Positions 1,404 through 17,475 are shown, counted from the whole stretch's first letter. The stretch: DNA of 17,475 bases, filler included, from Candidatus Zapsychrus exili (GCA_030765585.1; 2 parts of 2 records of this genome joined end to end with filler, not necessarily neighbours in it); one strand, 5' to 3'. The notes: generated from the sequence alone by a model not told the origin. Made by a program: numbers and translations.

Positions 1404-1408
1404 AATCC

Positions 1409-2322: not shown

Positions 2323-2335
2323 ATTCTTTTATACC

Positions 2336-2728: not shown

Positions 2729-2768
2729 TTCTTATTCCTTTATTTTCTTTTATAAAATAGAGAACTAC

Positions 2769-2954: not shown

Positions 2955-2961
2955 AATATTT

Positions 2962-3507
2962 TTATTTCTTACTAAAAGGCATTCCTAATAGAGTTAACAA
3001 CTCAAATACCTTTTCTTTTTCGCCATTTTTGAAAACTAATGTTATATCCATACCTTGTGTATACGCCATTCGTCCAGTATCAATTTCTGGAAAAATTGCT
3101 TGATCTGAAAGACCAAGAGTATAGTTGCCTTGCTTATCAAAGCCATTACGTGAAACACCATTAAAATCTCTAATCCTAGGAAGAGCTACATTAACCATTC
3201 TATCTAAAAATTCATACATTTTTGTTTTACGCAAAGTTACTTTACATCCAACTGTCATTCCTTCACGTAATTTAAAATTTGAGATAGATTTCTTTGCTTT
3301 TGTTACAATTGGCTTTTGACCTGTAATCGTTGTCATTATATCAACAGCATGATCCATCATCTTAGCATCACTAATCGCTCCACCAACTCCCATATTAACA
3401 ACTATTTAATCTAGCCTAGGCAAAGCTAAAGAGTTTTTTATATTAAACTTCTCTTTTAAGGCCGGTATACATTCTTGGTTATATTTATCTTGTAAACGAG
3501 AACTCAC
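2962..3507 (-). CDS. rplE: 50S ribosomal protein L5 (in-frame TAA at codon 34, probably a base-call error)
   Basis: GTG at 3507-3505 reads [41 protein letters not shown], in frame with the 2962..3393 ORF ([28 protein letters not shown]). Confidence 0.93.
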
Positions 3508-3509
3508 CT

Positions 3510-3821
3510 TTAAACCACCTCTCCACTTTTTTTGCTAATTCTTACTTTCGAACCATCTTTTAAAATTGAAACACCAAAACGAGTTGGCTTATTTGTCTTT
3601 TTATCTAAAAGCATAATATTTGAAATGTGTATAGACGTTTCTATTTCAATAAAACCACCTTGTTGATCTTGCTGAGTTTTTCTCTTTGCCTTCTTTACCA
3701 TATTAATGTTTTCAACTATAACACGATCACTCTTAGGAAAAACTCTTAAAATTTTACCTATCTTCCCTTTGTCTTTCCCAGCAATTACAACTACTTGATC
3801 ATTTTTTTTAATACTTAACAT
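3510..3821 (-). CDS. rplX: 50S ribosomal protein L24
   Basis: IKKNDQVVVIAGKDKGKIGK KOW motif, IHISNI. Confidence 0.98.
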   Translation of the reverse strand: MLSIKKNDQVVVIAGKDKGKIGKILRVFPKSDRVIVENINMVKKAKRKTQQDQQGGFIEIETSIHISNIMLLDKKTNKPTRFGVSILKDGSKVRISKKSGEVV

Positions 3822-4190
3822 TTAAACTACCTCAGGTGCTAAAGAAATTATTTTCATATAATCCATACCTCTTAGCTCTCTTGCAACAGGACCAAAAACA
3901 CGTGTTCCTCTTGGGTTGCCTGCATCATCTACAATTACAACCGCATTGCTATCAAAACGAACGTATGTTCCATCAGAGCGTCGGATAGGAAATTTTGTTC
4001 TTACAACAATAGCTTTTGCCATTGTTCCTTTTTTAACTGCCGCTTCTGGAGCAGATTCTTTAATATTTACCTTAATAGTATCTCCAATTTTAGCAAACCG
4101 CCTGCCTTTTACATTAAGCGCACTTATCATAGAAGCCTTACGAGCTCCGGAATTATCAGCTACATTTAATAATGTTTTCATATATATCAT
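3822..4190 (-). CDS. rplN: 50S ribosomal protein L14
   Basis: VADNSGAR, GTRVFGPVARELR, KIISLAPEVV. Confidence 0.98.
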   Translation of the reverse strand: MIYMKTLLNVADNSGARKASMISALNVKGRRFAKIGDTIKVNIKESAPEAAVKKGTMAKAIVVRTKFPIRRSDGTYVRFDSNAVVIVDDAGNPRGTRVFGPVARELRGMDYMKIISLAPEVV

Positions 4191-4199
4191 AAAGACCTC

Positions 4200-4472
4200 T
4201 TATTCTTCTAATTTCTTTACTATACTAGCAATTACCCAGCGTTTATCTTTTGAAATTGGGCGAGTCTCTTGAATCTTAACAATATCCCCTGCTTTAGATT
4301 CATTTTTCTCGTCATGCGCTTTATATTTAGAAGCAGTTCTTACAACTTTTGTATATTTAGAATGTTTTGTAGACCACTTAACCTGAACAGTGCGAGTCTT
4401 GTTCATCTTGTCACTTACAACAGTGCCTTGAAGAACTTTTCTTCTATTTAGTCTCTTTGTCACTTCTGGCAT
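4200..4472 (-). CDS. rpsQ: 30S ribosomal protein S17
   Basis: GTVVSDKMNKT, KYKAHDEKN, ETRPISKDKRW. Confidence 0.97.
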   Translation of the reverse strand: MPEVTKRLNRRKVLQGTVVSDKMNKTRTVQVKWSTKHSKYTKVVRTASKYKAHDEKNESKAGDIVKIQETRPISKDKRWVIASIVKKLEE

Positions 4473-4662
4473 CTTCTATTTCTCTTTCTCTTAATATTGT
4501 CAAAATACGAGCAATATCTTTTTTTAACATTTTAAAACGTGCTGGTTTTTCAACAGCGCCCATTTTGCGTTGATAACTAAGATCAAAAAGCTCTTTTTTA
4601 AATGTTTTCTCTTTTTGTATCAACTCTTCTTTTGTTAATTCTTTTAAATCTTTTATTTTCAT
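4444..4662 (-). CDS. rpmC: 50S ribosomal protein L29
   Basis: MKIKDLKELTKEEL...KKDIARILTILRERE; between rplP and rpsQ. Confidence 0.96.
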   Translation of the reverse strand: MKIKDLKELTKEELIQKEKTFKKELFDLSYQRKMGAVEKPARFKMLKKDIARILTILREREIEDARSDKETK

Positions 4663-4668
4663 AGCAAA

Positions 4669-5085
4669 TTAATGTCCAGCTCTTGTAACAAATTTTGTTT
4701 TTAATGGTAGTTTAAATGAAACTAATCTAAAAATTATCTTTGCAAAATCTTCAGGAACGCCACTTATCTCAAATAAGACTCTACCTCTTTTAACTACGGC
4801 TACCCAATGATCAAGATCACCTTTTCCTTTACCCATACGAGTTTCAGCAGGCTTTTTAGAAACAGGTTTACTAGGAAATATATTTATCCAAAGGGTGCCT
4901 GCCCCTTTTAGCTTTCTAGCTACAACAACACGACAAGCCTCTATATGATTAGAACGAATCATTCCATTTTCTATAGCCTTAAGTCCGTATTCCCCAAAAG
5001 TTATTTTACTTCCTGTTGTTGCAATTCCTCTATTTTTTCTTTTTTGGGACTTACGATATTTAACTTTTCTTGGCAATAAAACCAT
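4669..5085 (-). CDS. rplP: 50S ribosomal protein L16
   Basis: LLPRKVKYRK, KKPAETRMGKGKG, KLPLKTKFV. Confidence 0.98.
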   Translation of the reverse strand: MVLLPRKVKYRKSQKRKNRGIATTGSKITFGEYGLKAIENGMIRSNHIEACRVVVARKLKGAGTLWINIFPSKPVSKKPAETRMGKGKGDLDHWVAVVKRGRVLFEISGVPEDFAKIIFRLVSFKLPLKTKFVTRAGH

Positions 5086-5089
5086 CTAT

Positions 5090-5767
5090 TTAGCTCTCCT
5101 GTTTATTTTCAGCAACACTTGTGTTCTGTCTCTTTATTTGTTTTATAACATCACCTTTATAAACCCAAACCTTAACGCCAAGTATTCCATAAGTAGTCAA
5201 AGCTTCAGCAAAACCATAATCGATTTTTGATCTAAACGTTTGTAAAGGCAACTTTCCTTCTTTATAACTTTCTTGACGCGCCATTTCAACTCCATTAAGA
5301 CGTCCAGCGCATCTAATTTTAATACCCTTTGCACCTGATGTCATAGCGTTATCGATAGCTCTTTTCATTGCGCGACGAAATGCGATTCTTTTTTCAAGTT
5401 GAAAAGCAACATTTTGTGCAATTAGTTGAGCTTCAATAGAAGGATTCTTAATTTCTCTTGGATCAATAGTAATTTCTTTTGAAGTTATCTTTGCCAACTC
5501 TTCCTTTAATCTATCAATATCAGCACCGCGACGACCAATAATAACACCTGGTCTTGCAGTATGAATGATAACTTTTACCTTATCAGCCAATCTTTCAATA
5601 ACAACCTTAGCTACCGCAGCTTGCACAAATCTCTTTTTGATAAACTTTCTAATCTTTTGATCTTCGATAACGTTCTTTGCAAATTCATGTTTATCGGCAT
5701 ACCAACGACTTCTCCAGTCTTCGATGTATCCAATTCTTAAAACAATAGGACTTACTTTTTGACCCAC
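5090..5767 (-). CDS. rpsC: 30S ribosomal protein S3
   Basis: MGQKVSP, TARPGVIIGRRG, GRLNGVEMAR, TTYGILGVKVWVYKG; GTG start. Confidence 0.98.
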   Translation of the reverse strand: MGQKVSPIVLRIGYIEDWRSRWYADKHEFAKNVIEDQKIRKFIKKRFVQAAVAKVVIERLADKVKVIIHTARPGVIIGRRGADIDRLKEELAKITSKEITIDPREIKNPSIEAQLIAQNVAFQLEKRIAFRRAMKRAIDNAMTSGAKGIKIRCAGRLNGVEMARQESYKEGKLPLQTFRSKIDYGFAEALTTYGILGVKVWVYKGDVIKQIKRQNTSVAENKQES

Positions 5768-5779
5768 TTTGACTCCCCT

Positions 5780-6115
5780 TTATTTTGCTATCAAATCTAA
5801 TTCTATTGTTAAATGTGATGTTTTCTTTATTATCTTTGTTGCGCGACCAAATGCAGCCGCTCTGAATCTTCTCCATGAAGGGCCTTGGTCAGCAGTTATC
5901 TTAGAAATAAAAAGCTGTTCTTCTGATAAACCTTTTTGCTTAGCATTACTTGCAGCCGAATTAAGCACTTTAGAAATCATTTTTGTTGATCCCTTGTTTG
6001 CCTGCATCAATATAGCTAATGCTGTTGGCACATCACGACCTCTAATAAGATCAATCACTTGTCTAAGTTTAATAGGTGAAACTCTAACATATCTTGCTTT
6101 TGCTATTGATATCAT
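5780..6115 (-). CDS. rplV: 50S ribosomal protein L22
   Basis: AKARYVRVSPIKLRQVIDLIRG, SAASNA, GRATKIIKKTSHLTIEL. Confidence 0.98.
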   Translation of the reverse strand: MISIAKARYVRVSPIKLRQVIDLIRGRDVPTALAILMQANKGSTKMISKVLNSAASNAKQKGLSEEQLFISKITADQGPSWRRFRAAAFGRATKIIKKTSHLTIELDLIAK

Positions 6116-6120
6116 AATAA

Positions 6121-6408
6121 TTATGTCTTTTGAGCTGCTTTCTTAGCTTTGACTCCGCCATGTTTTCTAAAAATTCTTGAATTTGCGAAGACTCCTAGTT
6201 TATATCCAACCATATTCTCTGTTATAAAGACAGGAACATGTTTCTTTCCATCATGGACTGCGATTGTATAGCCTACAAAGTCTGGAATAATTGTTGATCT
6301 TCTAGACCAAGTTTTTATTGGCAACTTTGATCCAGATTCCACCACTCTGTTGAATTTCTTCATTAATGTATCTTCTATATAAGGACCTTTTTTAATAGAA
6401 CGTGGCAT
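6121..6408 (-). CDS. rpsS: 30S ribosomal protein S19
   Basis: [35 protein letters not shown]. Confidence 0.98.
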
Positions 6409-7247
6409 TACTTAGCACCTCTTCTTCTTACAATATATTGATTTGAATATTTTTTACGTTTTCTCGTTTTAAAACCTTTTGTTGGCTTACCCCAAGGTGT
6501 TACGGGATGAGGGTTTCCTTGTGGAGCTTTTCCTTCACCACCACCATGAGGGTGATCGACAGGATTCATTACAACACCTCTTACCTGTCCTCTTTTACCT
6601 AACCAGCGCATACGACCTGCTTTTCCTATAGAACGACTTTCATGTTCAACATTACCTATTTGTCCAATAGTTGCACGACAATTAATATGAATTTTTCTTA
6701 CTTCTGATGAAGGCATTCTTATAAAAGCAAATTCGCCTTCCTTTGCCATAAGTTGTGCTGATGTTCCTGCTGAACGAGCTATTTGTCCACCTTTTCCAGC
6801 TTTTAATTCTATGTTATGAACACCTGTTCCAAGAGGAACTTTACTTAAAGGCATACAATTGCCTGCTTTAAATTCAATAACTGAGTCATAAGTACTTGAT
6901 ACCTTATCTCCTACTTTTAATTCTAAAGGAGCAAGAATATAAGATTTTGCTTCATCTTCATACTGAATTAAAGCAATTCGACAAGTTCTGTTGGGATCAT
7001 ATTCTATAGCAAGCACTATAGCTTCTTGATCAATACGATCACGTTTAAAATCTACTAACCTATACATACGCTTATGTCCACCACCGCGATATCTTGCAGT
7101 AATTCTTCCGTAAGAATTTCTTCCACCCTTTTTCTTCAAAGGCTTAAGAAGCGATTTTTCTGGCTTAGACTTTGTTATTTCTGCAAAATCAGAAATTGCT
7201 GTATGCCTTAAACTAGGTGTCGTTGGTTTAAATCTTTTAATTCCCAC
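6408..7247 (-). CDS. rplB: 50S ribosomal protein L2
   Basis: [41 protein letters not shown] start. Confidence 0.99.
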
Positions 7248-7250
7248 TTT

Positions 7251-7529
7251 TTAAGTTACCTCTATCTTTTGACCTTCTTCAAGCGTTACAAATGCTTTTT
7301 TCCAATCAGGTGTTTTTCCTTGTTGCTGACGAACTCTTTTTTTCTTACCAGGCATAATTGTTACATTGACTGCAGCTACTTTTACCTTATATATTTCTTC
7401 GACAGCTTTCTTTATTTCAATTTTATTAGCACTCTTAGCTACTTCAAAAAGGTACTTTCTATCAATTTCTAGAGAAGCTCCTTTTTCTGTTCGTATTAAA
7501 TTTTTAATAATATCGTAAGATGTAATCAT
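7251..7529 (-). CDS. rplW: 50S ribosomal protein L23
   Basis: TEKG, ANKIEIKKAVE, WKKAFVTL. Confidence 0.97.
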   Translation of the reverse strand: MITSYDIIKNLIRTEKGASLEIDRKYLFEVAKSANKIEIKKAVEEIYKVKVAAVNVTIMPGKKKRVRQQQGKTPDWKKAFVTLEEGQKIEVT

Positions 7530-8149
7530 TTCTTTATTCTATCCAATAAACTGTTAAATGCTGTCTTAGATAACAATAGCTTTTTATTTTTTAAAATATC
7601 ATAAGCATTAACATCACAAGCTCTCATTAAATTAAACCCGCGAATGTTACGTGATGCTTTCATAATGCTTAAATCGCTACCGTCTAGCACAGCTAGGGTT
7701 TTACATTTTATATCTAGTTTTTCTAAAACTTTACTAAATTCTTTAGTTTTATTAAAAGCTTCTTTTAAATCAACAATACAAAGCAAATCTTTATCAATAA
7801 CTTTTGCACACAAGCTTTCTCTTAAAGCTGCCTTTTTTATCTTCTTAGGTAATGGATAATCGAAATCGCGAGGATGTGGTCCAAATACAACCCCACCACC
7901 TGCCCAAAGAGGATTACGACTAGAACCAACTCTGGCTCGTCCAGTACCTTTTTGACGATGTGGCTTTCTTCCGCCTCCAGATACACAAGATCTTCCTTTA
8001 GTAGATGCTGTTCCTTGACGCAAAGAAGCTTGATACATAACTACTGCTTGATGAATAACGTCTGCATTCACTTTGCCATTAAAAATATCATCTGGAAGAT
8101 CGATACTTTCTTTTTCTTTACCATTTTTATCTAAAACTGGAAATTTCAC
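7526..8149 (-). CDS. rplD: 50S ribosomal protein L4
   Basis: RQGTASTKGR, RQKGTGRARVGS, GGGVVFGPHPRD; GTG start. Confidence 0.98.
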   Translation of the reverse strand: MKFPVLDKNGKEKESIDLPDDIFNGKVNADVIHQAVVMYQASLRQGTASTKGRSCVSGGGRKPHRQKGTGRARVGSSRNPLWAGGGVVFGPHPRDFDYPLPKKIKKAALRESLCAKVIDKDLLCIVDLKEAFNKTKEFSKVLEKLDIKCKTLAVLDGSDLSIMKASRNIRGFNLMRACDVNAYDILKNKKLLLSKTAFNSLLDRIKK

Positions 8150-8183
8150 TTAACTTTTTCCTTTATTATTTTTAAAGAAGATA

Positions 8184-8888
8184 TTATTTCTTCTTGGCCT
8201 TTGCCTTACTTTGCTTCATAGGATTAATCTTATGTTTGATAACAGCTTTCTTCTCTTCAAGCGACCTATATGCCTTCTTAAAAGAACGATTTACAGAAAC
8301 AACTGCATTGTGATGTCCTGGAATAGCGCCTTTAACTAATATAATATTATTATCGGCATCAACCTCCATAACTCGCAATCCCTGAGTAGTAATTCTTTTT
8401 GCACCCATTTGACCTGGCATATTTGTACCCTTAAGTGTTCTTGAAGGATCAGCACTAGCACCAATGGAACCAACTCTTCTATGATGCATTGAACCATGTC
8501 CTCCTGGTCCACCAGACCAATGCCAACGTTTCATACCGCCTTGAAAACCTTTACCAATCGATGTTCCTGTAAAATCAACAAAGTCTCCTGGCTTAAAAAA
8601 ATCTGCCTTGATTTCTTGGCCAACTTGATAATCTTTGTTATCAGTTGAAGAAAATTCTCTTACAACTTTAGTAGGCGTTACAGAAATTTTCTTAAAGAAT
8701 CCTAATTCAGGCTTAGTTAGTCTTGATTCTTTAACAGCTCCAAAACCTAACTTAATCTTCATCGGTTCTTCTTTTAATTCCAAGACAGTACATGGCCCAA
8801 CTTCAACAACCGTTACGGGAACAACATTTCCTTCTGGGTCGAAAATCTGAGTCATACCTAATTTTTTTCCAATCAGACCTCTTAACAT
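8184..8888 (-). CDS. rplC: 50S ribosomal protein L3
   Basis: GKKLGMTQIF, GTSIGKGFQG, HRRVGSIG, MPGQMG, VKGAIPG. Confidence 0.98.
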   Translation of the reverse strand: MLRGLIGKKLGMTQIFDPEGNVVPVTVVEVGPCTVLELKEEPMKIKLGFGAVKESRLTKPELGFFKKISVTPTKVVREFSSTDNKDYQVGQEIKADFFKPGDFVDFTGTSIGKGFQGGMKRWHWSGGPGGHGSMHHRRVGSIGASADPSRTLKGTNMPGQMGAKRITTQGLRVMEVDADNNIILVKGAIPGHHNAVVSVNRSFKKAYRSLEEKKAVIKHKINPMKQSKAKAKKK

Positions 8889-8901
8889 TTCACTTACTTT
8901 C

Positions 8902-9204
8902 TTATTGTTTGATTTCTACGTCAACACCAGCAGGAAGATTTAACTTTCTTAATGCTTCAATCGTCTTTGCTGTCGGCTCAAGTAAATCAACTAACCTTTT
9001 ATGTGTTGCTAGACTAAATTGCTCTCTAGACTTTTTATCTATAACTGGAGACCTAAGAACCGTATAAAGTTCTTTTTTAGTAGGTAACGGTACGGGACCT
9101 GAAACTTTAGCTCCGGTACGAATTGCTGTATCTACTATCTCTTTTGTAGATTGGTCAATGAGCCTGTGATCAAACGCTTTTAATTTTATTCTTATTTTTT
9201 GCAT
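8902..9204 (-). CDS. rpsJ: 30S ribosomal protein S10
   Basis: [35 protein letters not shown]. Confidence 0.99.
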
Positions 9205-9218
9205 ATTTTACCTTTTAG

Positions 9219-10412
9219 TTATTCTATAACCTCATGAATAACGCCAGCTCCAACAGTACGTCCACCTTCACGAATAGCGAAGCGTAGCTCTTTTTCCATA
9301 GCAACAGGTTGAATAAGTTCAACTTCCATTTCAACGTTATCACCTGGCATACACATCTCTACACCCTCTGGAAGAAGTGCTGTTCCGGTAACATCTGTTG
9401 TTCTGAAATAAAACTGTGGTCTATATCCTTTAAAGAAAGGAGTATGTCTTCCGCCTTCTTCTTTAGTTAGAATATATGCTTTAGCTTTAAATTTAGTATG
9501 TGCAGCAATTGTTCCAGGAGCAGCTAAAACTTGTCCTCTTTCAATTGCTTCTTTATCAATACCTCTTAAAAGAAGACCGACATTATCTCCTGCTTGTCCT
9601 TCTTCCATTTCTTTTCTAAACATTTCAACACCTGTTACAACCGTCTTTTTAGCTTCTTTTGTCATACCGACGATTTCAGCATTATCTCCAACATGAATCT
9701 TTCCTCTTTCGATTCTACCTGTTGCAACAGTTCCGCGACCAGAAATAGAGAAAACATCTTCTATCGCCATTGAGAATGGTTTATCTAGTTCACGAGGTGG
9801 TTCAGGAATAAAAGAATCAACGGCTTCCATCAGCTTATCAATTGATTCTGTTTTTGTTGGATCATCCATATTATTTAAGGCTTCTAAAGCACTTCCTTGA
9901 ATTATAGGAGTATTGTCTCCGTCATAATTATATTTAGTAAGAAGTTCTCTTAATTCCATTTCAACTAGTTCAAGAAGTTCTTTGTCTTCTACTTGATCAC
10001 ATTTATTCATGTAAACAACGATAGAAGGAACGTTTACCTGACGTGCTAAAAGGATATGCTCTTTTGTTTGAGGCATAGCTCCATCAGCAGCTGATACAAC
10101 TAGAATAGCTCCATCCATTTGAGCAGCACCAGTAATCATATTTTTAATATAATCAGCGTGACCTGGACAATCAATATGAGCATAATGACGACTCTCTGTT
10201 TCATACTCAAGATGAGCGATATTGATTGTAACTCCTCTTTCTTTTTCTTCAGGAGCGTTATCAATAGAATCATACGAACGCTCTTGAGCGAACCCTTTTT
10301 TTGCTTGATAAAGAGTGATCGCAGCTGAGAGAGTTGTTTTACCATGATCAACGTGACCAATGGTTCCGATGTTCATGTGCGGTTTATTTCTTACGAATTT
10401 TTCCTTAGCCAT
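9219..10412 (-). CDS. tuf: Elongation factor Tu
   Basis: [55 protein letters not shown] upstream. Confidence 0.99.
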
Positions 10413-10450
10413 AAATGCCTCCTTTTTAAATAAAAAGAATTTCTTATTTC

Positions 10451-12492
10451 TTATTTCTTATTTGTAAGTTCCTTTGCTCCCATAATCTTCTCGGAAACAT
10501 ATTTAGGAACTTCTGCATAATATGATGGTTCCATTGAAAAAGATGCTCTACCTTGCGTTAAAGAACGCAAAGCATTAACATAATTAAACATCTCAGCTAA
10601 AGGAACATCACAACGTGCTGTTTTTAAATTTCCCCTACTACCATTCCAACTATTTGAGCTCTTCTTTGATTCAGATCCCCTAAAACTGTGCTCATAAAAT
10701 CTTCAGGAGAAGTTACTTCTATGTCCATAACAGGCTCAAGCAAAACAGATTTTCCTTTTCTCAATCCTTCTTTAAGCGCCATCTTAGCCGCTAATTGAAA
10801 TGCCAACTCGCTTGAATCTACTTCATGATATGAACCATCAACTAATGTTACAGTAAAATCAACAACAGGATAAGCAGCTAGTATACCATTATTTGCACCA
10901 TCCATGATACCCTTTTGAACGCACTTTATAAATTCACGAGGTATTGATCCACCCTTAATTCTATCAATAAATGTAACGCCTTTTCCTTTTTCTTCAGCTG
11001 GCTCTATATCAATAATGACGTGGCCATATTGACCCTTACCACCAGTTTGTGAAATGTACTTCCCTGATATACCTTTAACTTTTTCTGTAATAGTTTCCTT
11101 ATAAGCAACCTCTGGACGACCAACTGTAGTCTCTAAATTAAATTCTCTCTTCATACGATCAATAATAATCTCTAAATGAAGCTCTCCCATTCCAGATATA
11201 ATAGTCTGAGCTGTTTCATGATCATACATAACTTGCAAGGAAGGATCCTCATCTAAAAATTTTCTTAAAGTCAAACCTAACTTATCTTGATCAGCTTTTG
11301 TCTTAGGCTCTATAGACATAGAAACTACTGGCTCTGGTATCTTCATGTTTTCTAAAACAATTTTATTGTCAATATTACATATAGTGTTTCCAGATTTTGA
11401 TTCTTTTAATCCAACCAATGCAACAATTTCTCCAGCTGATGCTTTCTCAGCAATTTCTTGTTTATTAGAATGCATAACAACTATCTTCGCGATTCGTTCT
11501 TTTGCTTTTTCAGATGAATTATATACCTGTGTTCCCGATGTAATAGTTCCAGAATATATTCTTGTGTAGAATAATTTTCCAACATAAGGGTCAGTTGCTA
11601 CTTTAAATATTAATGCGCTTAGAGGAACATCTGGTTTTGGCTCCCAAGCTAAACTTTCTTTCGTTTTTGGATCTTCACCTTTAACCTGAGGAACTTCCAA
11701 AGGAGATGGAAGATAATCGCATATAGCATCTAGTACAAGTTGAACTCCTCTATTCCTTAAAGCTGTTCCTGTTAAAACTGGTAAAAATGCATTTTTAAGT
11801 ACGCTTCTTCTTATAGCTGCTTTAAGCTCGTCTTTTGTAATTTCTTGCTCTTCTAAAAATTTCTCCATTATACTATCGTCTGCATCAGCTAGCTTCTCTA
11901 TAAGTGTATGTTTGCATTCTTCTAATTTTTCTTTTAAATGTTCTGGTACTTCGCTTCTTTCTAAATCCATTCCTTCAGCATCTTTATATGTAATATATTC
12001 CTCGTTAACAACATCTACAATACCTTCACATTGATCTTCTGCCATATTTGGAAAATTAATTACCGCTGCATTAGCACCTAATCTATCATGTATTTCTCCT
12101 AAAACTCTTTCGTAACTTGCACCCAATCTATCAATTTTATTAATAAAACAAATACGAGGAACATTATATCTATCAGCTTGACGCCAAACAGTTTCAGTTT
12201 GAGATTGAACACCACTTGTTGCACACAATATAACTACAGCGCCATCAAGAACCTTAAGCGATCTTTCTACTTCAACTGTAAAATCAACGTGTCCTGGAGT
12301 ATCAATTATATTTATCTTCTTTTTTTGCCAGTAACATGTTGTATTAGCAGATGTAATTGTAATGCCTCTTTCCTGCTCTTGAGCCATCCAATCCATAGTT
12401 GCATTACCTTCATCAACTGTGCCCATTTTATGTATAACGCCTGTGTAAAACAAAATACGTTCTGTTGTAGTTGTTTTACCAGCATCAATATG
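10451..12492 (-). CDS. fusA: Elongation factor G, 5' truncated by the gap, with a 1-bp frameshift near 10641
   Basis: Frame is open to the gap ([18 protein letters not shown]), then [25 protein letters not shown]; after ...RRAQIVGM the EF-G C-terminus [38 protein letters not shown]...KK* continues in another frame to a stop at 10453-10451. Confidence 0.96.
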
Positions 12493-12592
12493 NNNNNNNN
12501 NNNNNNNNNNNNNNNNNNNNNNNNNNNNNNNNNNNNTTAATTAATTAANNNNNNNNNNNNNNNNNNNNNNNNNNNNNNNNNNNNNNNNNNNN
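12493..12592. other. Artificial assembly spacer (44 N + TTAATTAATTAA + 44 N)
   Basis: Exactly 100 bp and symmetric; central 12-mer at 12537-12548 places stop codons in all six frames. Confidence 0.97.
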
Positions 12593-12747
12593 AGGTTGGA
12601 TTTTATAACTCTAGTTATGATTTTAATGGACTTCAAATTGGGATTATAAATGAAGCTGATTGGTTAAACGGAGTGCAAATAGGTCTTATTAATGTTCACA
12701 AGAACGGCGAAAGAGACTTTTTTCCTATAGTTAATTTTTCATTTTAA
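12593..12747 (+). CDS. 3' end of a GxQIGxxN repeat protein (LA_2272-like surface repeat family), truncated by the gap
   Basis: Manual translation from 12595: VGFYNSSYDFNGLQIGIINEADWLNGVQIGLINVHKNGERDFFPIVNFSF*; repeated NG[LV]QIG[IL]IN and terminal FPIVNFSF; family assignment from recall. Confidence 0.75.
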
Positions 12748-12792
12748 TTTAAATGTATTATAGGTTTTTGTTGTCAGAGAGGATTATATTTT

Positions 12793-12999
12793 ATGGTTAA
12801 AAGGATAGAGGTTAATATTGTTGCAGGTAGAATTCTAGAATTATTGGAACACAACAAGGGACTTTTTGCGAAACAAATGGTATCTGAAGTTTTAAAAGAG
12901 CCAGAAGACTTGGTTTTAAAAGGAATAGAGTGTCTTGTAAAGAACGATTTAGTTGAAATTCAAAGAGAAGAAAATATATTGATAGAAAAAAATAATTAA
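12793..12999 (+). CDS. Small winged helix-turn-helix-like protein (DUF2582-like)
   Basis: 68 aa; AG-x-I-x-x-L-L start and L-x-x-GI-x-x-L-x-K-x-D-x-V pattern resembles DUF2582 by eye; RBS AGAGGA upstream. Confidence 0.55.
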   Translation: MVKRIEVNIVAGRILELLEHNKGLFAKQMVSEVLKEPEDLVLKGIECLVKNDLVEIQREENILIEKNN

Positions 13000-13089
13000 G
13001 TACAGGTGATTTTTTACAAAATTGCAGCTATCTTTTAATTTTAATAGGATTTTACTTTCTTTAGCTTATTTCTAGGTTTAATTCGTATC

Positions 13090-13117
13090 TTGAAATATAT
13101 CGAATTCTTGATAGAAT
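13090..13117 (+). promoter_or_regulatory. Candidate sigma70 promoter upstream of the cassette-like array
   Basis: TTGAAA (13090-13095), 16-nt spacer, TAGAAT (13112-13117) with extended -10 TG at 13109-13110. Confidence 0.45.
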
Positions 13118-13220
13118 ATTATCTTATTTAACGGAGATTGATACGTCTAAGTGGTTGCAACAAAGGTATAGAAAGTTTGCGTAAAAATGGAAGTGGAGTC
13201 TTTAAGTAGGGGGAGAATAA

Positions 13221-14294
13221 GTGGTTTCAGTGTGTGAGAATAAAAAGGGGAGATTTCTGCCTAAATCATTTGATGTTGCCCATAGGTTGTGTTTTGTGAT
13301 TCATGATGTTATGTGTCAAATAATCACGTCAGGAGAAGAGGGCAATTTCTTTACTACAACTATTGAGTTAAAAAATAAGAATGAACGAGAAGCGTTAAAT
13401 AATATAGATGATTTCTTTGCGTTGTTGGAAAGTGAGGAACGTTTTGAGGACAGGGCCGAGATTCTGAGAACGGTCGTTTTGCCTGCAGTCTTATCTGACA
13501 TGATGCATTGTATTTTTGAATCTTTAGAAAGCTCCCGAAAGGCTAAATTGGGTGTTTCCTACATGCTTATACGGAAACCATTACAGGAGAGTTTGTATTT
13601 ACTAGAGTCAGTTGTGCTGGATGAGTCGGATTTTGCAAAAAAATTAGTCGAAGACCCTTTAAAACTTCGTCCAAGCAATGCGGGTGGTGTTGAAGACCAT
13701 GGGCGACGAATTAAAAAGGTCCTAGAGATTATTAGTGAAACTCCTCGCCTTGATGCTGATTATATTGCACAGCTTAGATATGACAAAAAGAAGGAAGACA
13801 GTTTTGATGGAGCATGTAATCACGCAATGCATTTGTTTACGCAACATGAAGCTATTCGAACTGAAAACTTAAATATCAACTTTATCTTTTCTGGTTGGGA
13901 AGAAAAGATAACCCAATGGTCATATTTTTATAGTCGGTTACCATATTTGCTCTTTTATACCCATAAAATGGTCGAACATATCGTAGAAAGGATAGTTCCT
14001 ACGTCACAAGAATATCTTGATGATATTCAAAGAAGATTATCTGCGCTAATTATTTTATGGTGGGAAGGCATTGATGAGCAGTACACCTGTGATCAGCTAA
14101 TGATTTTTGTGAAAGAAACAGAATCTTGGCTAAAGAAACATTGCAAATCTGCTGGGCACAGAATCCCCAATAATAAAGATTTATGGAGAATGTCAAAAAC
14201 AGGTGCTTTTCCGAAAGAAAACATATTTTCAGTTAAGGCGCGTGCTCTAAAGTATGAAGCTCGTGCTGCTATAAACAAAATATATGCAAACTAA
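13221..14294 (+). CDS. Hypothetical 357-aa protein, possibly a divergent HEPN/DUF5677-like fold (cassette 1)
   Basis: GTG start after RBS GGGGAG; motifs LIRKPLQE and ACNHAMH parallel the R-x3-E and distal H pattern of DUF5677-like proteins; TAA stop lies in repeat 1. Confidence 0.7.
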   Translation: MVSVCENKKGRFLPKSFDVAHRLCFVIHDVMCQIITSGEEGNFFTTTIELKNKNEREALNNIDDFFALLESEERFEDRAEILRTVVLPAVLSDMMHCIFESLESSRKAKLGVSYMLIRKPLQESLYLLESVVLDESDFAKKLVEDPLKLRPSNAGGVEDHGRRIKKVLEIISETPRLDADYIAQLRYDKKKEDSFDGACNHAMHLFTQHEAIRTENLNINFIFSGWEEKITQWSYFYSRLPYLLFYTHKMVEHIVERIVPTSQEYLDDIQRRLSALIILWWEGIDEQYTCDQLMIFVKETESWLKKHCKSAGHRIPNNKDLWRMSKTGAFPKENIFSVKARALKYEARAAINKIYAN

Positions 14295-14312
14295 ACGTTA
14301 ATTATGGTAAGT
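14289..14312 (+). repeat. Inter-gene direct repeat 1 (dif/Xer-like site)
   Basis: AACTAA-ACGTTAA-TTATGGTAAGT. Confidence 0.85.
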
Positions 14313-14326
14313 AGGAGATAATAAAT

Positions 14327-14629
14327 ATGCAAGCAAATGAAAGATCGCTAGAGATATTAAACTTATTTGGTAAATATATTCAAGATGGAGATGAGTCTAC
14401 TGTTAAAGGCATTTCGGAAAAAGAACTAGAGATTACTTTGATACAATGTCTTCAAGATAAAGAATCTTCTCAATACGAAGCTATGGAAAGATGGTTGGAT
14501 AAGTTAACAAATAATAAGAAAGAGAACCAAAGAAAAAATGAAAAAGTAGAAGAAAGAATTTGGAATTTAATTTTCTTAATCGTAGGAGTTTTGATTACTT
14601 ACATCAGTACTTCGTTAATAGTAAAATAA
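14327..14629 (+). CDS. Hypothetical 100-aa protein with a C-terminal transmembrane helix (cassette 2)
   Basis: RBS AGGAG at 14313-14317; C-terminal IWNLIFLIVGVLITYISTSLIV hydrophobic stretch. Confidence 0.75.
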   Translation: MQANERSLEILNLFGKYIQDGDESTVKGISEKELEITLIQCLQDKESSQYEAMERWLDKLTNNKKENQRKNEKVEERIWNLIFLIVGVLITYISTSLIVK

Positions 14630-14714
14630 ATAAGCTAATAAGAAAATTGAAGGATGGCAGCAAAAGACATTTGGCGATCGATTTCTTATTATGGCTCCAA
14701 GAGAAAACAAAAAA

Positions 14715-14738
14715 AATTAATCGTTAATTATGATAAGT
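14715..14738 (+). repeat. Inter-gene direct repeat 2 (dif/Xer-like site)
   Basis: AATTAA-TCGTTAA-TTATGATAAGT, identical to repeat 3 over 24 bp. Confidence 0.9.
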
Positions 14739-14765
14739 CAGAATAAATTTTAAGAAGGTCTTTCA

Positions 14766-15551
14766 ATGAATACAGATCAATCATATTTACAAAGATATAA
14801 AAAATTTTTACGAGAATATGCGAGCAGACACTACTATTTAATTATTAACAGAAGAATAAAGGGTGAAAGATTATTAGGACAACGTAGCATTAATTTGCTT
14901 CTGCATATTCTTCAAAGATCACGTTATTTGTCCGAATCGCTCGCAATGTGTTTTAATCATAAACATCAATCGGTCGCATATTTGGCCGTTAGAGCGCACT
15001 TTGAAGTAACAGGCATGCTGGTATATTTTTATAATAAAATAAAAAGATTTTATGAAAAAGACATTACATATGAAGAAATGGATGTAGTTCTTCGTCGTTT
15101 AACATTAGGGGGCAGAGCTTCGGCGCAAAAACTTTTACCAAGTTTTTCTAAGGCTATTAGTGTTATGGATTTCATTGATGAAGCAGATCGATTATTTAAT
15201 TCTATGGCCAAAGAAAAGAAAGATATTTATCGTGATCGTTATGATTATTTGTCTGAATTTTGCCATCCCAATAATTTTGGTTTAACTCTTGGGTGTAATA
15301 TTGTCGGATGGAATGGACGTACTTTTGCAAAAACTCAAGTTCTTGAGAAAAGAGATAAAAAAGAGCTTATTCGTGATTTTAATATTAGTTCAATTCTTTT
15401 TTTCTCGATATATGATAAATGTTTTGAGATTATAAAAGAAAGAGAATCAAAAGATATGCCATTATTATTTAAAAGTTTCACTGCTTTTAATTGGGCTCTT
15501 ATAAAATTTAAGCTGGGAGCAAAAGATAAAGCATTTGAACGCGCTAATTAA
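14766..15551 (+). CDS. DUF5677-like / HEPN-like hypothetical protein (cassette 3)
   Basis: 261 aa; AYLAVRAHFE and YDYLSEFCHPN match the R-x3-E ... Y-x2-LS-x3-HP pattern recalled for this family; TAA stop lies in repeat 3. Confidence 0.7.
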   Translation: MNTDQSYLQRYKKFLREYASRHYYLIINRRIKGERLLGQRSINLLLHILQRSRYLSESLAMCFNHKHQSVAYLAVRAHFEVTGMLVYFYNKIKRFYEKDITYEEMDVVLRRLTLGGRASAQKLLPSFSKAISVMDFIDEADRLFNSMAKEKKDIYRDRYDYLSEFCHPNNFGLTLGCNIVGWNGRTFAKTQVLEKRDKKELIRDFNISSILFFSIYDKCFEIIKERESKDMPLLFKSFTAFNWALIKFKLGAKDKAFERAN

Positions 15552-15569
15552 TCGTTAATTATGATAAGT
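15546..15569 (+). repeat. Inter-gene direct repeat 3 (dif/Xer-like site)
   Basis: AATTAA-TCGTTAA-TTATGATAAGT; 15543-15573 matches 17316-17346 at 30 of 31 positions. Confidence 0.9.
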
Positions 15570-15591
15570 AGAAAAATGATGCGAGGAATAT

Positions 15592-16197
15592 ATGAAAAAA
15601 AATGAAACTGTCGTTCGTGGAGCGCCAAAGCTTGTTGGCAGAAATCTTTCGCCCGAAGAAAGAGAGGCACGAGCTGCAAAAGAAAGAGCCGAGACCGCTG
15701 AAACAGGGCTCCTTTTCAATTTGAAACGTTTTGCTGTGTGTTTAAGTCAAGGAAACACGACGATGTATTTTGACAAGATTACAACAGCTACAATTTCTGA
15801 GCTAGTAAGGTTTAAAAAGGTAATTAGACAATATAAAAAGGATCTAGCTAAAGTTACTTTTTCAAATTCCCGACTTACAATATACGATATTCTAAAAGCG
15901 GCGATAAATCATGAGCTATTAAGACGAAAATCAATACTTTTTAAAATTTACTCTTTGCTGTTACCGCTTCGGAAAGTAATAGCTTGGCAAGTTGGTCATA
16001 GAAAAAGTCATTATTATAAAGAATTTGGCATAATATTTGTTTATAAGTATACTCATAATTTCTTTTATGCTCCAATAAGCAAACACGTTAAAGCTTTATG
16101 GCGATTTTGGCTGTTACATTGGAAATGGCTCTTACAATCTTCCGGTGGTATAGGTCTTGGTTATCTGTTATTAAAATTATATCGTTATTTAAATTAA
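15592..16197 (+). CDS. Hypothetical basic 201-aa protein with Trp-rich hydrophobic C-terminus (cassette 4)
   Basis: RBS GAGGA upstream; C-terminal LWRFWLLHWKWLLQSSGGIGLGYLLLKLY; TAA stop lies in repeat 4. Confidence 0.65.
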   Translation: MKKNETVVRGAPKLVGRNLSPEEREARAAKERAETAETGLLFNLKRFAVCLSQGNTTMYFDKITTATISELVRFKKVIRQYKKDLAKVTFSNSRLTIYDILKAAINHELLRRKSILFKIYSLLLPLRKVIAWQVGHRKSHYYKEFGIIFVYKYTHNFFYAPISKHVKALWRFWLLHWKWLLQSSGGIGLGYLLLKLYRYLN

Positions 16198-16215
16198 ACA
16201 TTAATTATAATAAGG
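16192..16215 (+). repeat. Inter-gene direct repeat 4 (most divergent copy)
   Basis: AATTAA-ACATTAA-TTATAATAAGG; three differences from repeat 5, same position relative to stop and next start. Confidence 0.75.
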
Positions 16216-16229
16216 AAGAAAGGAAGAGA

Positions 16230-16703
16230 ATGATAAAGAAATTATTAAACCCAATTATAGTATCATGGATTGCTATTTGTATATCTGTTTTTAGTGTTTG
16301 GTTCTCAATACGTAATGCAAACACTAATCGTATAATGCATCTCAATAATATCCGAGGGGAAATAGTGACTCAATTAACTATTGTAGGTTTAGAATTACTA
16401 TCTAATATTAAATCTCTATTAAAATATAGCAACCCAGATTTAGATACTATCGAAATCCTTAAAGAATTAGCTGAAGATATAGTAAAAATACGAAATAATT
16501 TCAAGCTGGAGGCATTTGGCTCTCCGTCTTTAAAAGTTATTGATAAGTACGCCAAAGATCTTTCAGCAATAAAAATAGATTGGGATGATTCTATACATAT
16601 TTTTGAAAAACTTACACAGGCTGTAAACGCAAAAGATATGGAAAGCGTAAAACAATGCACTAAAGGTCTACACGAAAGATTCCACGGCACAAAAACACCA
16701 TGA
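16230..16703 (+). CDS. Hypothetical 157-aa protein with an N-terminal transmembrane helix (cassette 5, gene 1)
   Basis: Start reassigned from 16098 to the in-frame ATG at 16230 (RBS-like AAGGAAG, removes a 100-bp overlap); IIVSWIAICISVFSVWFSI is hydrophobic. Confidence 0.7.
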   Translation: MIKKLLNPIIVSWIAICISVFSVWFSIRNANTNRIMHLNNIRGEIVTQLTIVGLELLSNIKSLLKYSNPDLDTIEILKELAEDIVKIRNNFKLEAFGSPSLKVIDKYAKDLSAIKIDWDDSIHIFEKLTQAVNAKDMESVKQCTKGLHERFHGTKTP

Positions 16704-17305
16704 AAGAAATCAAACTTCCAGCTAGATACATAATTCGAGCTTCTTTGCCTATTCATTTTGACAACAAAGAATCTGAACAAGTAGGAAACATAAAAGCTGC
16801 CCATATTAGCACATTCAAAGTTAACAAAGAAGAATATGACATTGTTCAGAAGAATGGGGCACAAGTTATATCCAGCACTATTTATATTGAATCCCTGATC
16901 GAGGATATTTTGTCAATTTACTTATTTGAAGATAAAAAAGAGAATAATAGCAAGAGGTCTTTTTTTGATAATGAAATATTAAAATCTGACAACTTATCAT
17001 TCTCTGCCAAAAAAGAATTATTACAAAAACTTTTAAATAGCCTTGTTTTTTTAAAAGGCAAAGAAAAAGATCTTTTACAAAAGAATTTTAAAAATATTTT
17101 AAATATACGCAATGCTTTTGCACATGGAAAACTTGTAGACGATACGAACAAAGATTGGCAAATTCAATATTATTCAGGAAGCAAAAAAAACATCTCCTTA
17201 GACGACATATACTGGCAAGAACTAGAAGATTGTTTTAACCAAACCGACACATTGCTTAAAGACATAAAAGATAAACTAGTCAAAAAGTTTACACCCTCAA
17301 GTTAG
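16700..17305 (+). CDS. HEPN-domain protein, putative RNase (cassette 5, gene 2)
   Basis: IRNAFAHG has the HEPN Rx4H motif, with upstream IESLIEDIL and LSFSAK typical of MtlR-like HEPN folds; ATGA overlap with the previous gene. Confidence 0.75.
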   Translation: MKEIKLPARYIIRASLPIHFDNKESEQVGNIKAAHISTFKVNKEEYDIVQKNGAQVISSTIYIESLIEDILSIYLFEDKKENNSKRSFFDNEILKSDNLSFSAKKELLQKLLNSLVFLKGKEKDLLQKNFKNILNIRNAFAHGKLVDDTNKDWQIQYYSGSKKNISLDDIYWQELEDCFNQTDTLLKDIKDKLVKKFTPSS

Positions 17306-17318
17306 CATAAGATGAGCT

Positions 17319-17342
17319 AATTAAACGTTAATTATGATAAGT
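17319..17342 (+). repeat. Inter-gene direct repeat 5 (dif/Xer-like site)
   Basis: AATTAA-ACGTTAA-TTATGATAAGT. Confidence 0.9.
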
Positions 17343-17343
17343 A

Positions 17344-17383
17344 GAACTAACTATTGATAAAATATGTTATCAATAGTTTGTTC
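17344..17383. repeat. 40-bp near-perfect palindrome between repeat 5 and the patatin gene
   Basis: GAACTAACTATTGATAA-AATATG-TTATCAATAGTTTGTTC: 17-bp arms with one mismatch, inner 12 bp perfect, 6-bp centre. Confidence 0.85.
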
Positions 17384-17409
17384 AAAAAATATACGAAAAA
17401 TAAATTCAT

Positions 17410-17475
17410 ATGAGTAGAAAATTTAAAATATTATCAATCGATGGTGGTGGAATTAGAGGCTTGATTCCTGCAATG
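17410..17475 (+). CDS. Patatin-like phospholipase, 5' end only (cassette 6)
   Basis: Manual translation MSRKFKILSIDGGGIRGLIPAM contains the patatin glycine-rich LSIDGGGIRG motif; not in the ORF track. Confidence 0.88.
   Translation, partial: MSRKFKILSIDGGGIRGLIPAM

Follow-up and report, generated by a model that had tools for sequence, protein, structure and literature searches.

A row of short genes that all run in one direction and are separated by copies of one short direct repeat raises the question of whether it is a mobile cassette array, i.e. a platform from which genes are excised and inserted by a tyrosine recombinase, as a first-pass annotation had proposed, or whether the repeats have another origin or another role. 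The row is located in a window of 17,475 nucleotides (the whole stretch of DNA that was analysed) from Candidatus Zapsychrus exili, an uncultured Omnitrophota bacterium whose genome is represented by 129 contigs and 2,044,061 bases (2.04 Mb).

The five repeats and the genes between them

The window consists of two contigs and an N spacer, so the array does not adjoin the ribosomal-protein operon; it sits on its own contig of 4,883 bp, which corresponds to window positions 12593-17475 (Table 1). The left flank holds the 3' part of a repeat-protein gene, up to 12747, and a 68-aa, winged-helix-like ORF at 12793-12999. This flank has a second copy on contig C35, with 96% identity (596/620), and the similarity breaks off at 13212, which we therefore take as the left edge of the array. 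Neither a full site nor an attI-like site has been found at this edge, just the short motif TAAGTAG at 13200-13206.

Table 1. Coordinates of the array, its flank and the palindromic sites (window positions, unless a contig is named)
Feature	Position	Strand	Description
N spacer	12493..12592		artificial, joins contigs C128 and C129; not biology
Left flank	12593..13212	+	repeat-protein gene 3' end, 68-aa ORF, 220-nt leader
Promoter match	13090..13117	+	best sigma-70-like match, 5' of cassette 1: TTGAAA, 16 nt, TAGAAT, with TG; consensus match only
Cassette 1	13221..14294	+	357-aa protein; no Pfam, NCBIfam or PADLOC family
Site s1	14285..14312	+	centre CGTTAA; right arm TTATGGTAAGT, one change; holds cassette 1 stop codon
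Cassette 2	14327..14727	+	100-aa protein (14327-14629) with C-terminal hydrophobic segment; doubtful 55-aa ORF (14560-14727)
Site s2	14711..14738	+	centre CGTTAA; right arm TTATGATAAGT
Cassette 3	14766..15551	+	261-aa protein; possibly DUF5677-like (see text)
Site s3	15542..15569	+	centre CGTTAA; right arm TTATGATAAGT; holds cassette 3 stop codon
Cassette 4	15592..16197	+	201-aa protein; no family
Site s4	16188..16215	+	centre CATTAA; right arm TTATAATAAGG; holds cassette 4 stop codon
Cassette 5	16230..17305	+	overlapping pair: 157-aa (16230-16703) and 201-aa (16700-17305) proteins
Site s5	17315..17342	+	centre CGTTAA; right arm TTATGATAAGT
siteC	17350..17377		ACTATTGATAAAATATGTTATCAATAGT; perfect 11-6-11 palindrome, dif-like, 28 bp; left end of the CBASS-recombinase module
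Effector	17410..17475	+	patatin-like phospholipase effector, type II CBASS, first 22 codons; rest on contig C120
siteB	contig C35:834-861		ACTTATCATAATATCAATTATGATAAGT; perfect palindrome; arms equal the array right arm

The five direct repeats of the first-pass annotation, all on the plus strand with motif starts at 14289, 14715, 15546, 16192 and 17319, are confirmed, as are the gaps from repeat to next start codon (14, 27, 22, 14 and 67 nt). The chance expectation is 0.01 copies, with none of 200 shuffles reaching five, and a scan of all 129 contigs, which the annotation had called for, has found the full motif on the array contig only. The motif length of 24 nt has been revised: the conserved block is 26-28 nt and reaches TAAGTAG. 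The copies fit an 11-6-11 register, in which positions 1-11 form an AT-rich left arm (..AATTAAA/T) that matches weakly and does not mirror the right arm, positions 12-17 form a constant centre (CGTTAA in 4/5 copies), and positions 18-28 form the right arm, TTATGATAAGT; the most diverged copy is s4, with three changes. The TAA at motif positions 4-6 is the stop codon of the upstream ORF in three of the five copies. Every gene junction of the row that is longer than 14 nt is occupied by a site, while neither the overlapping gene pairs nor the CBASS operon that follows the row is split by one.

The modules are mutually unrelated accessory genes of 0.4-1.1 kb, all on the plus strand. The cassette 1 protein is a member of a family of hypothetical proteins with a scattered distribution, and a search for homologues in the order's 167 other genomes has found none. 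For cassette 3, language-model and structure look-alikes give a lead to a DUF5677-like protein; in cassette 5, the 157-aa protein has an N-terminal hydrophobic segment, and the 201-aa protein has weak HEPN-type matches and an R-x4-H motif. Where one interval with a coupled pair had been described, two intervals hold two ORFs: that of cassette 2, with the doubtful 55-aa ORF, and that of the overlapping pair of cassette 5. The promoter match 5' of cassette 1 is a candidate for a single promoter of the whole row, and no terminator is predicted between cassettes.

The closing module and its recombinase

The row is closed by a second kind of module. Seven nucleotides past the right arm of s5 (end 17342), siteC begins, followed by the effector gene; the array contig then overlaps contig C120 by 127 nt, where a CBASS cyclase, a split E2/E1 and JAB precede a minus-strand gene for an Xer-like recombinase and siteA. 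The type II CBASS gene set is complete, comprising the CD-NTase cyclase, the effector, E1/E2 (Cap2) and JAB (Cap3), with PADLOC matches to the phospholipase effector (1.5e-89), the cyclase (4.4e-104), JAB (1.7e-45) and an E1-E2 spread over two ORFs (1.2e-51 and 1.8e-68), and Pfam matches to Patatin, DncV-like NTase/SMODS, Prok-E2_B, ThiF and Prok-JAB. The array had been expected to go on past 17475; a PWM scan has found no further copy of the motif on the continuing contig.

Two perfect palindromic 28-bp sites bracket this module, siteC and siteA (AGTTGCTATAATGTATATTATAGCAACT), the latter located 40 nt upstream of the recombinase start. Non-trivial perfect palindromes of the form ATAA-N6-TTAT number just three in the genome (siteA, siteB and siteC), all on contigs that follow the array. 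The recombinase's own nearest site is siteA, the arms of which differ from the array's right arm; s2, s3 and s5 share theirs at 11/11 positions with both arms of siteB. Two contigs enter C120 and two leave it, so that the module occurs in two assembly contexts, with breakpoints at its sites: the left neighbours part 1 nt before siteC, and the right neighbours, C35 (which carries siteB) or C36, part 2 nt after siteA. The second left neighbour, the reverse complement of C94, has just CATTAATTATG in common with the site in register and differs at 8 of the next 12 nt, and is thus not a clean crossover product.

A tyrosine recombinase outside the window had been predicted, and the search at the end of the array has located a dedicated gene on the contig that follows, at a distance of about 5 kb downstream. 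The enzyme is 319 aa long and is encoded on the minus strand, converging on the row from its far end; its best NCBIfam models are XerC/XerD and its best solved relative is XerD 1a0p. An identity as IntI, an integrase with a family-specific extra segment, has been rejected: the NCBIfam integron-integrase model matches only 72 residues (231-302) and scores 63.9 bits where the cut-off is 265, and a second such model gives 35.4 bits where the cut-off is 435.

In at least 12 loci of the clade to which this recombinase belongs, a palindromic 11-6-11 site is located 25-135 nt upstream of the recombinase start, and in several genomes these sites carry the arm of the array right arm; near the closest orthologues (genomes G013 and G010, 73-74% identity), no array-type sites have been found. 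A dif-type site directly upstream of an Xer-family gene is also seen in the single-recombinase systems XerS/difSL and XerH/difH. These are one-per-chromosome dimer-resolution systems, whereas the present clade occurs in just 16 of the 168 genomes of the order, in up to four copies each, where it coexists with the usual XerC/XerD-like genes and with a host dif that is separate and conserved. Of the 168 genomes, 134 have this dif of the order (..CCTATAA, 6 bp, TTATGTTAACT), usually in one copy. Clade modules adjoin it in G063, and adjoin a host-dif-like site in G097, G098 and G095 (two mismatches to the consensus) and in G100.

Relatives and known systems

In a relative, the MAG Candidatus Omnitrophota bacterium OFTM38 (G012), the site recurs at two loci, where it separates unrelated defence modules: PDC-S47/Abi_alpha, DUF3192 with GIY-YIG, and PifA at the first, and a retron-type RT with DUF5677, then Gabija, at the second. 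Its four sites all have the centre CGTTAA and agree in strand and orientation, and both loci end at a minus-strand recombinase that is 44-45% identical to the enzyme described here. All three arrays, from two genera, have a dedicated-clade recombinase at their end, and a degenerate left arm with a good right arm is seen in all nine copies of the site, the centre being CGTTAA in eight. Among about 185,000 species scanned, the array-type site has been found in only two, counting the present one (the scan may omit this genome's own records); looser matches number 14, six of them in these two genomes, against seven in a reversed control, and elsewhere they occur at about the control frequency. No cassette is common to the three arrays, so the comparison of relatives that the annotation had proposed does not demonstrate reordering.

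The integron-like character that had been suggested holds for the layout only: the cassettes are arranged head to tail on one strand without predicted promoters of their own in consensus scans, with one candidate promoter upstream; a recombination-type site, often holding the stop codon, is located at the cassette 3' end; and a tyrosine recombinase shares the island with unrelated accessory cargo (recognised defence systems in G012). It does not hold for the enzyme, which is Xer-like and not IntI, and whose gene is distal and convergent, whereas that of integrons is upstream and divergent; nor is there an attI-like full site at the head of the row. The sites also differ, in agreement with the annotation's view that they are not attC: attC sites are imperfect inverted repeats of at least 55 bp that fold as hairpins, while the sites of the array are double-strand, dif-type sites of 26-28 bp, for which DNA folding of 46-nt windows predicts no stable hairpin (-0.1 to -4.5 kcal/mol, z +0.9 to -3.0).

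The Acinetobacter dif (pdif) modules of Rep_3 plasmids are likewise small and bounded by 28-bp 11-6-11 dif-like sites, and a given module recurs in several contexts whose breakpoints lie at the sites; here this is seen for the CBASS-recombinase module, not for the five small cassettes. Acinetobacter modules are often toxin-antitoxin or resistance modules; those here are TA and defence modules. Their sites alternate in orientation around modules, whereas all five sites of the present array (and the four of G012) are direct; the present array is, moreover, chromosomal, from an uncultured phylum, with its own Xer-like recombinase, arms unlike the host dif and a second site class of perfect palindromes. 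In IMEXs (the CTX/TLC arrays of Vibrio, and others), the inserted DNA is also flanked by direct dif-like repeats with one poor arm, and the clade modules beside a host dif or host-dif-like site recall this arrangement. IMEXs are by definition without their own recombinase and rely on host XerCD; here, a dedicated recombinase is found in the island, the array is at neither host-dif-like site of the genome (contigs C62 and C80, away from the array), and single-gene cassettes are without phage or plasmid functions. The locus is probably a recombinase-linked module array that stands between integrons, Acinetobacter dif modules and IMEXs.

Alternative readings and a proposed mechanism

With somewhat better than even confidence, we read the repeats as asymmetric dif-type core sites that split a row of accessory genes into modules swapped by the recombinase. 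The gene-shuffling platform of the first-pass annotation is supported in part, by the dif-type anatomy of the sites, by the dedicated recombinase and by the relative in which defence systems are parted by the same site; against it, no excision has been seen and no cassette is shared. The search for an excision joint, a circle or an empty site has found none in the contigs of four public runs, the only ones to hold the locus, none of which spans the array.

The sites could instead be fossil scars, i.e. hybrid attachment sites left by serial insertions in the manner of IMEXs, through this recombinase or host XerCD, and now fixed in a static defence island, which we consider rather unlikely. The sites have a single well-preserved arm, as hybrid attL/attR sites do; this, the visible decay of s4, the lack of junction variants in the contigs of the runs that hold the locus, and the position of clade modules next to host dif or host-dif-like sites, as with IMEXs, are in keeping with such scars. 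However, the serial insertion of a full-site element into a half-site would give full sites or both hybrid kinds, and one hybrid kind alone is seen in the two genera; the conservation of the left arm and the constancy of the centre across both genera argue for selection over decay, and no cassette carries its own genes for replication or mobility.

It is improbable that the 26-nt block is regulatory punctuation copied before each gene, with no recombination, either as the promoter or operator on which a dedicated factor acts (alternative sigma, phage-type polymerase or repressor) or as an RNA-level signal that halts translation in every frame and lets it start again. The block always precedes a start codon by 14-67 nt and points the same way as the gene, contains TATGAT/TATAAT-like hexamers and stops in all three frames, followed by a Shine-Dalgarno-like purine run, and a small palindrome forms its left part, in which the present genome and G012 differ by a single change that appears compensatory. 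Yet none of the five sites scores in a consensus sigma-70 scan, since no -35 partner is present in any; the distance from site to start differs five-fold; a related site on contig C54 has no gene to drive, as the gene that it faces is convergent and presents its 3' end; and the motif is missing from the rest of the genome. The punctuation reading also leaves unexplained that the right arm is the arm of recombinase-linked palindromic dif-type sites, and no island-specific regulator gene has been found, the 68-aa ORF of the left flank being present also at a paralogous, array-free locus.

That host XerC/XerD, and not the island recombinase, act on the five sites by a strict Acinetobacter dif-module or IMEX mechanism is less probable still: the genome does encode two XerC/XerD-like proteins, its best Phage_integrase matches (the C83 protein reaching 282.7 bits for XerD in NCBIfam), and the sites have the asymmetric form, variable arm, 6 bp and conserved arm, that is typical of XerC/XerD sites, but the order's dif matches the right arm at 9/11 positions and the left arm poorly, whereas siteB matches the right arm in full, and each of the three arrays ends with a recombinase gene from the dedicated clade. 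The annotation had left the choice between host Xer and a dedicated enzyme; a dedicated gene has been found, and it is the likelier of the two because the conserved dif of the order has other arms.

In the module-swapping reading, we infer that the island recombinase acts on the five sites, where its binding would be firmer on the strong right arm than on the left arm. Recombination between two directly repeated sites with the same centre would release a circle of the gene or genes with one site, and the circle could re-enter at any site that bears a matching centre. In favour of this reading, contigs from two marine runs match cassette 1 and s1 at about 98% and diverge just past the site, at 14315. 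Against it, the variant right arm of s1 remains joined in these contigs to the gene before it, a pattern more easily reconciled with crossing over at the right edge than in the centre. By such excision and re-entry, the island would gain, lose and reorder modules, most likely anti-phage genes, and its cassettes may still be moving. The array looks like an undescribed means to stockpile accessory genes, probably anti-phage ones, and, as we infer, to swap them.

The array repeats and the contig that carries them

Five plus-strand copies of AAYTAAWCRTTAATTATRRTAAGK, as claimed in the first-pass annotation, are indeed present in the window, where 0.01 copies are expected by chance and none of 200 shuffled sequences has contained five; the gaps from each repeat to the next start codon are the same as those reported earlier, and the scan of the whole genome (G000; 129 contigs, 2,044,061 bases, 34% G+C) has located the full motif at the five array places only. 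The repeat itself stands, but its extent had been drawn too short: the conserved block continues up to TAAGTAG. In three of the five copies, the TAA inside the motif is the stop codon of the upstream ORF. In an 11-6-11 register of the copies (s1 to s5), the right arm TTATGATAAGT and the centre CGTTAA are common to s2, s3 and s5, the left arms of which end in AATTAAA or AATTAAT; s1 departs by a single change in the right arm, and s4 by three changes, of which one is in the centre and the other two are in the right arm.

Looser copies of this asymmetric site type occur only twice in the genome, both with other centres: the first, on contig C19, is located between the divIC/enolase genes and an island that encodes AbiTii as well as a TraG-like protein and a phage-type integrase, and the second, on contig C54, is located past the 3' end of a methyltransferase gene. 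The C19 copy is situated exactly at the boundary of the housekeeping genes and the island, where the TraG-like protein is a coupling protein, the integrase has 395 aa and an HTH_17 protein is also encoded. Outside of G000 and the relative G012 (Candidatus Omnitrophota bacterium OFTM38), looser matches are at control level.

The window joins two contigs: positions 1-12492 are contig C128, with ribosomal protein, EF-Tu and EF-G genes, and positions 12593-17475 are contig C129, complete at 4,883 bp, while positions 12493-12592, across which features are not to be read, are Ns around the stop-codon linker ttaattaattaa. As the two contigs are separate, the ribosomal operon is not a neighbour of the array, and overlaps between the contigs have given the true neighbourhood. 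C129 shares its first 112 nt with the end of C58, a contig of housekeeping-type genes, and its last 127 nt with the start of C120; the reverse complement of C94, which carries AbiEi/AbiEii (PADLOC 1.3e-60 and 7.3e-100), ends in the same 127 nt, and the final 127 nt of C120 are the start of both C35 and C36. At the left edge, C129:1-620 (window 12593-13212) is 96% identical to a paralogous locus, the reverse complement of G000:C35 4005-4623; the similarity ends at 13212, just past TAAGTAG, and no full site is present at this edge. The duplicated 620-nt segment holds the end of a repeat-protein gene and a 68-aa winged-helix-like ORF with its leader, and precedes the array in one copy and an unrelated 229-aa gene in the other.

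None of the seven cassette ORFs has given a match above threshold to Pfam, NCBIfam or PADLOC; the five cassettes next to the CBASS genes of C120 encode proteins without a known family. The comparison of cassette 3 with the DUF5677 protein of G012 by BLASTP was not significant (E 0.6). In cassette 5, the 201-aa protein has an R-x4-H motif and weak matches to HEPN families (RiboL-PSP, Apea, RTasHEPN; E ~1e-3), and its ORF has a 4-nt overlap with that of a 157-aa protein that has a hydrophobic segment at its N-terminus; the pair may be a two-gene HEPN system.

Coordinates of the sites, loci and gene blocks compared in this analysis
Feature	Location	Description
s1	window 14289
s2	window 14715
s3	window 15546
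s4	window 16192
s5	window 17319
siteC	window 17350-17377	7 nt past the s5 right arm
siteA	C120:5311-5338	upstream of the recombinase gene, 40 nt from its start codon
siteB	C35:834-861	both arms exactly the array right arm
Cassette 5, 201-aa ORF	window 16700-17305
Looser array-type site on C19	L148 (G000:C19:9000-24000), locus 10817-10844	minus strand
Split CBASS E1-E2 (Cap2)	L145 (G000:C120) 2023-3798	adjacent ORFs of 338 and 252 aa
Host-dif-type sites of G000	C62:8580-8607; C80:24595-24622	two canonical copies
Three dif-like sites in the spacer of the second G012 locus	L014 (G012:C80), 5811-6023	two palindromic sites and one array-type site
Toxin-antitoxin locus of G013	L121 (G013:C10) 13600-18200	three directly oriented palindromic sites
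Block 1, G012 10-kb contig		1,042-aa ORF
Block 2, G012 10-kb contig		Abi_alpha/PDC-S47 and 263-aa ORF
Block 3, G012 10-kb contig		DUF3192 lipoprotein and GIY-YIG protein
Block 4, G012 10-kb contig		PifA-type KAP NTPase

The recombinase, its clade and the palindromic sites

The genome-wide scan of G000 for perfect ATAA-N6-TTAT palindromes with complementary 11-nt arms has returned three non-trivial sites only, siteA, siteB and siteC. The arms of siteA, the one next to the recombinase gene, differ from the array right arm. Contig C120 encodes a patatin effector, a CD-NTase cyclase, E2 and E1 as separate ORFs and a JAB protein, a gene set that is a type II CBASS; the two ORFs of the split Cap2 match the first and second halves of one PADLOC model. 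These genes are followed, on the minus strand, by a gene for a 319-aa tyrosine recombinase: an enzyme of the kind that had been predicted to lie outside the window is present on the contig that overlaps the end of C129. With siteC before it and siteA after it, the CBASS-recombinase module is therefore bracketed by these two sites. On C35, the interval from siteA to siteB holds a HicA/HicB pair, and genes for a polysaccharide deacetylase, CorA and ClpB come next. The possibility that siteB is the chromosomal dif has been ruled out: its arm type occurs in only 20 of the 168 genomes of the order, a count for which the reversed control was also positive in 5 genomes, and a different, conserved dif occurs in 134 of the 168.

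The best family models for the recombinase are XerC (182 bits) and XerD (178 bits), far below the equivalog cut-offs of 335 and 330; the closest solved structure is XerD, and integron-integrase models match the C-terminus only. Across the 168 genomes, ordinary XerC/XerD-like genes are ~29-37% identical to it, and a distinct clade, present in 16 genomes with up to 4 copies per genome, is 38-74% identical (E <=1e-47). In all examined loci of this clade, except for G086 and a truncated gene in G012 (contig C21), a palindromic 11-6-11 site precedes the gene start, at 25-135 nt in most loci and at ~550 nt on G012:C81; a second site often follows 0.7-1 kb further out. Array-type sites are absent beside the orthologues in G013, G097, G098, G095, G010, G058 and G086, where G013 and G010 hold the nearest orthologues. 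In G013, three palindromic sites in direct orientation separate a HigB/HTH pair, two small ORFs and a Gp49/HTH pair with the recombinase; these are toxin-antitoxin modules between dif-like sites. The locus, with two recombinase genes, is laid out as a chromosomal look-alike of the Acinetobacter dif modules. No relatives of the recombinase have been found on viral contigs, where the motif gave 14 single matches.

The host dif of the order, which consists of CCTATAA, six bases and TTATGTTAACT, is found in 134 of the 168 genomes (82 of the 91 high-quality ones), usually in one copy; the reversed control was often positive at 2 mismatches, while the real matches mostly show 0-1 mismatch, with a centre that hardly varies. 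G063 has the host dif 438 nt from the palindromic site and gene of the clade; the outer second site resembles the host dif in G097, G098, G095 and G100, and the G097 element, of only ~2 kb, lies between dif and housekeeping genes. Judging from these placements, the clade behaves as a mobile module of recombinase and site, for which dif is a frequent landing place. G000 has two canonical host-dif-type sites where most relatives have one, and one of the copies may border an element that has integrated.

The same site in a relative and the evidence on movement

The scan of related genomes, which had been proposed along with the motif, has singled out G012: among 41 relatives it alone matches (<=1 mismatch), with zero control matches. 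The exact motif, searched in one genome per species across ~185,000 species, has given 73 single scattered matches, the only two related ones being both in G012; in metagenomes, the motif has given 14 loci, of which 3 are 100%-identical fragments of C129 and the others consist of one site each and no recombinase. In G012, four blocks on a 10-kb contig are separated by three copies of the site, all on the same strand, and are followed by a minus-strand recombinase that is 45% identical to the G000 enzyme. A second G012 locus contains, in this order, a retron-type RT with the DUF5677 protein, a 315-nt spacer, and a 381-aa ORF with GajA and GajB; past Gabija, there are a palindromic site, more genes, and a minus-strand clade recombinase (44% identical) with its palindromic site. 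G012 and G000 have no flanking DNA or cassettes in common.

The centre is CGTTAA in 4 of 4 array-type copies of G012 and constant in 8 of 9 copies across the two genera, and the palindromic sites have many different centres. Since the partners of tyrosine recombinases need matching centres, the constant array centre, set against the varied centres of the palindromes, would fit exchangeability.

Four further observations speak for movement. Within a single assembly, the CBASS-recombinase module is joined on each side to either of two neighbours, the sequences of which part 1 nt ahead of siteC on the left and 2 nt past siteA on the right; the alternative neighbours, C94 and C36, carry MobC-like and relaxase-like genes, as read from the sequence alone, together with AbiE, an S24/HTH repressor, an HTH_17 protein and a phage-type integrase, and the module may also be on a mobilisable element in the same population. 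Array sites are present at all junctions longer than 14 nt, and overlapping pairs and operons are never split. Cassette 1 has no homologues in the 167 other genomes of the order, yet its family, of hypothetical proteins, is scattered over phyla, a distribution that suggests movement. Lastly, contigs from two marine sequencing runs of different studies match cassette 1 and s1 at ~98%, up to 14315, past which they continue into unlike sequence without cassettes 2-5; the break after s1 likewise suggests movement. Against it stand the nearest orthologues without array-type sites, the control-level frequency of looser matches outside of G000 and G012, the siteA arms that are unlike the array right arm, and the lack of a cassette common to any of the three arrays. 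Logan contigs contain no deletion or circle joints, and no contig spans the whole array; among the sequencing runs listed for the locus, none is of RNA.

As to where strands would be exchanged, a position close to the right border of the block fits no less well than the 6-bp centre, as it accommodates the left edge of the array, at which there is no full site, the s1-specific G of the right arm, which remains with cassette 1 in the marine contigs, and the alternative left neighbour (the reverse complement of C94), which has only CATTAATTATG in common with the site, in the same register.

Readings of the array and its relation to known systems

A bolder reading, to which we give clearly less than even weight, is that of an undescribed Omnitrophota gene-capture platform, where a dedicated Xer-family recombinase and dif-type sites build integron-like arrays of anti-phage genes. 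The recombinase would use short double-stranded sites, in which a fixed 6-bp centre lies between a strong and a weak arm, and at these it would excise and insert cassettes of a single gene or a few genes; the arrays would resemble those of integrons, with a chemistry and a site type unlike theirs.

The alternative that host XerCD acts on the sites is weakened by the difference between the dif of the order and the array site. That the sites are fossil scars has also lost ground, as one hybrid type only is seen and both the "weak" arm and the centre are conserved. A role as promoter or operator is weakened on four counts: none of the sites scores as a promoter, start codons follow the sites at varying distances, no gene lies downstream of the C54 copy, and the array right arm is identical to recombinase-linked palindromes. 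The scan of the genome for a phage-type RNA polymerase (PF00940) is uninformative on this, as neither the genome nor the controls gave a match. Simple serial integration of IMEXs at a full site, which predicts full/mixed hybrid sites between elements, is rejected, as none are seen; an operator of a regulon scattered genome-wide is ruled out by the restriction of the full motif to one contig, with looser copies on C19 and C54 only, and the attC/hairpin reading by the fact that the sites do not fold.

Among known systems, integrons are alike in layout, yet three of four integron membership tests came out negative. Acinetobacter dif modules are closest in site type and modularity, from which the array differs by site orientation, its own recombinase and its chromosomal location. 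The recombinase modules of the clade are similar to IMEXs in landing at dif, although IMEXs are by definition without a recombinase. Literature searches have returned papers on Acinetobacter dif modules, IMEXs and integrons and no description of such arrays, and an Omnitrophota preprint (10.64898/2026.05.20.726742) is concerned with Mu-class elements.

If the gene-capture reading is true, the five unannotated cassettes would be new defence genes. The site offers a search handle, as whatever is flanked by a pair of such sites becomes a candidate for a mobile defence gene; the site-bounded intervals of G012 hold Gabija, a retron-type RT, PifA and PDC-S47. Together with its 28-bp palindromic sites, the recombinase also makes a compact candidate pair of tools comparable to Cre/lox. 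Provided that the sites are active, the system would widen the "dif module" idea of Acinetobacter beyond resistance plasmids, to defence islands on chromosomes that encode their own recombinase, and would represent a second answer, arrived at independently, to the integron problem of how to store and reshuffle cassettes that lack promoters, built from Xer/dif parts instead of IntI/attC, in a phylum that is known from metagenomes alone.
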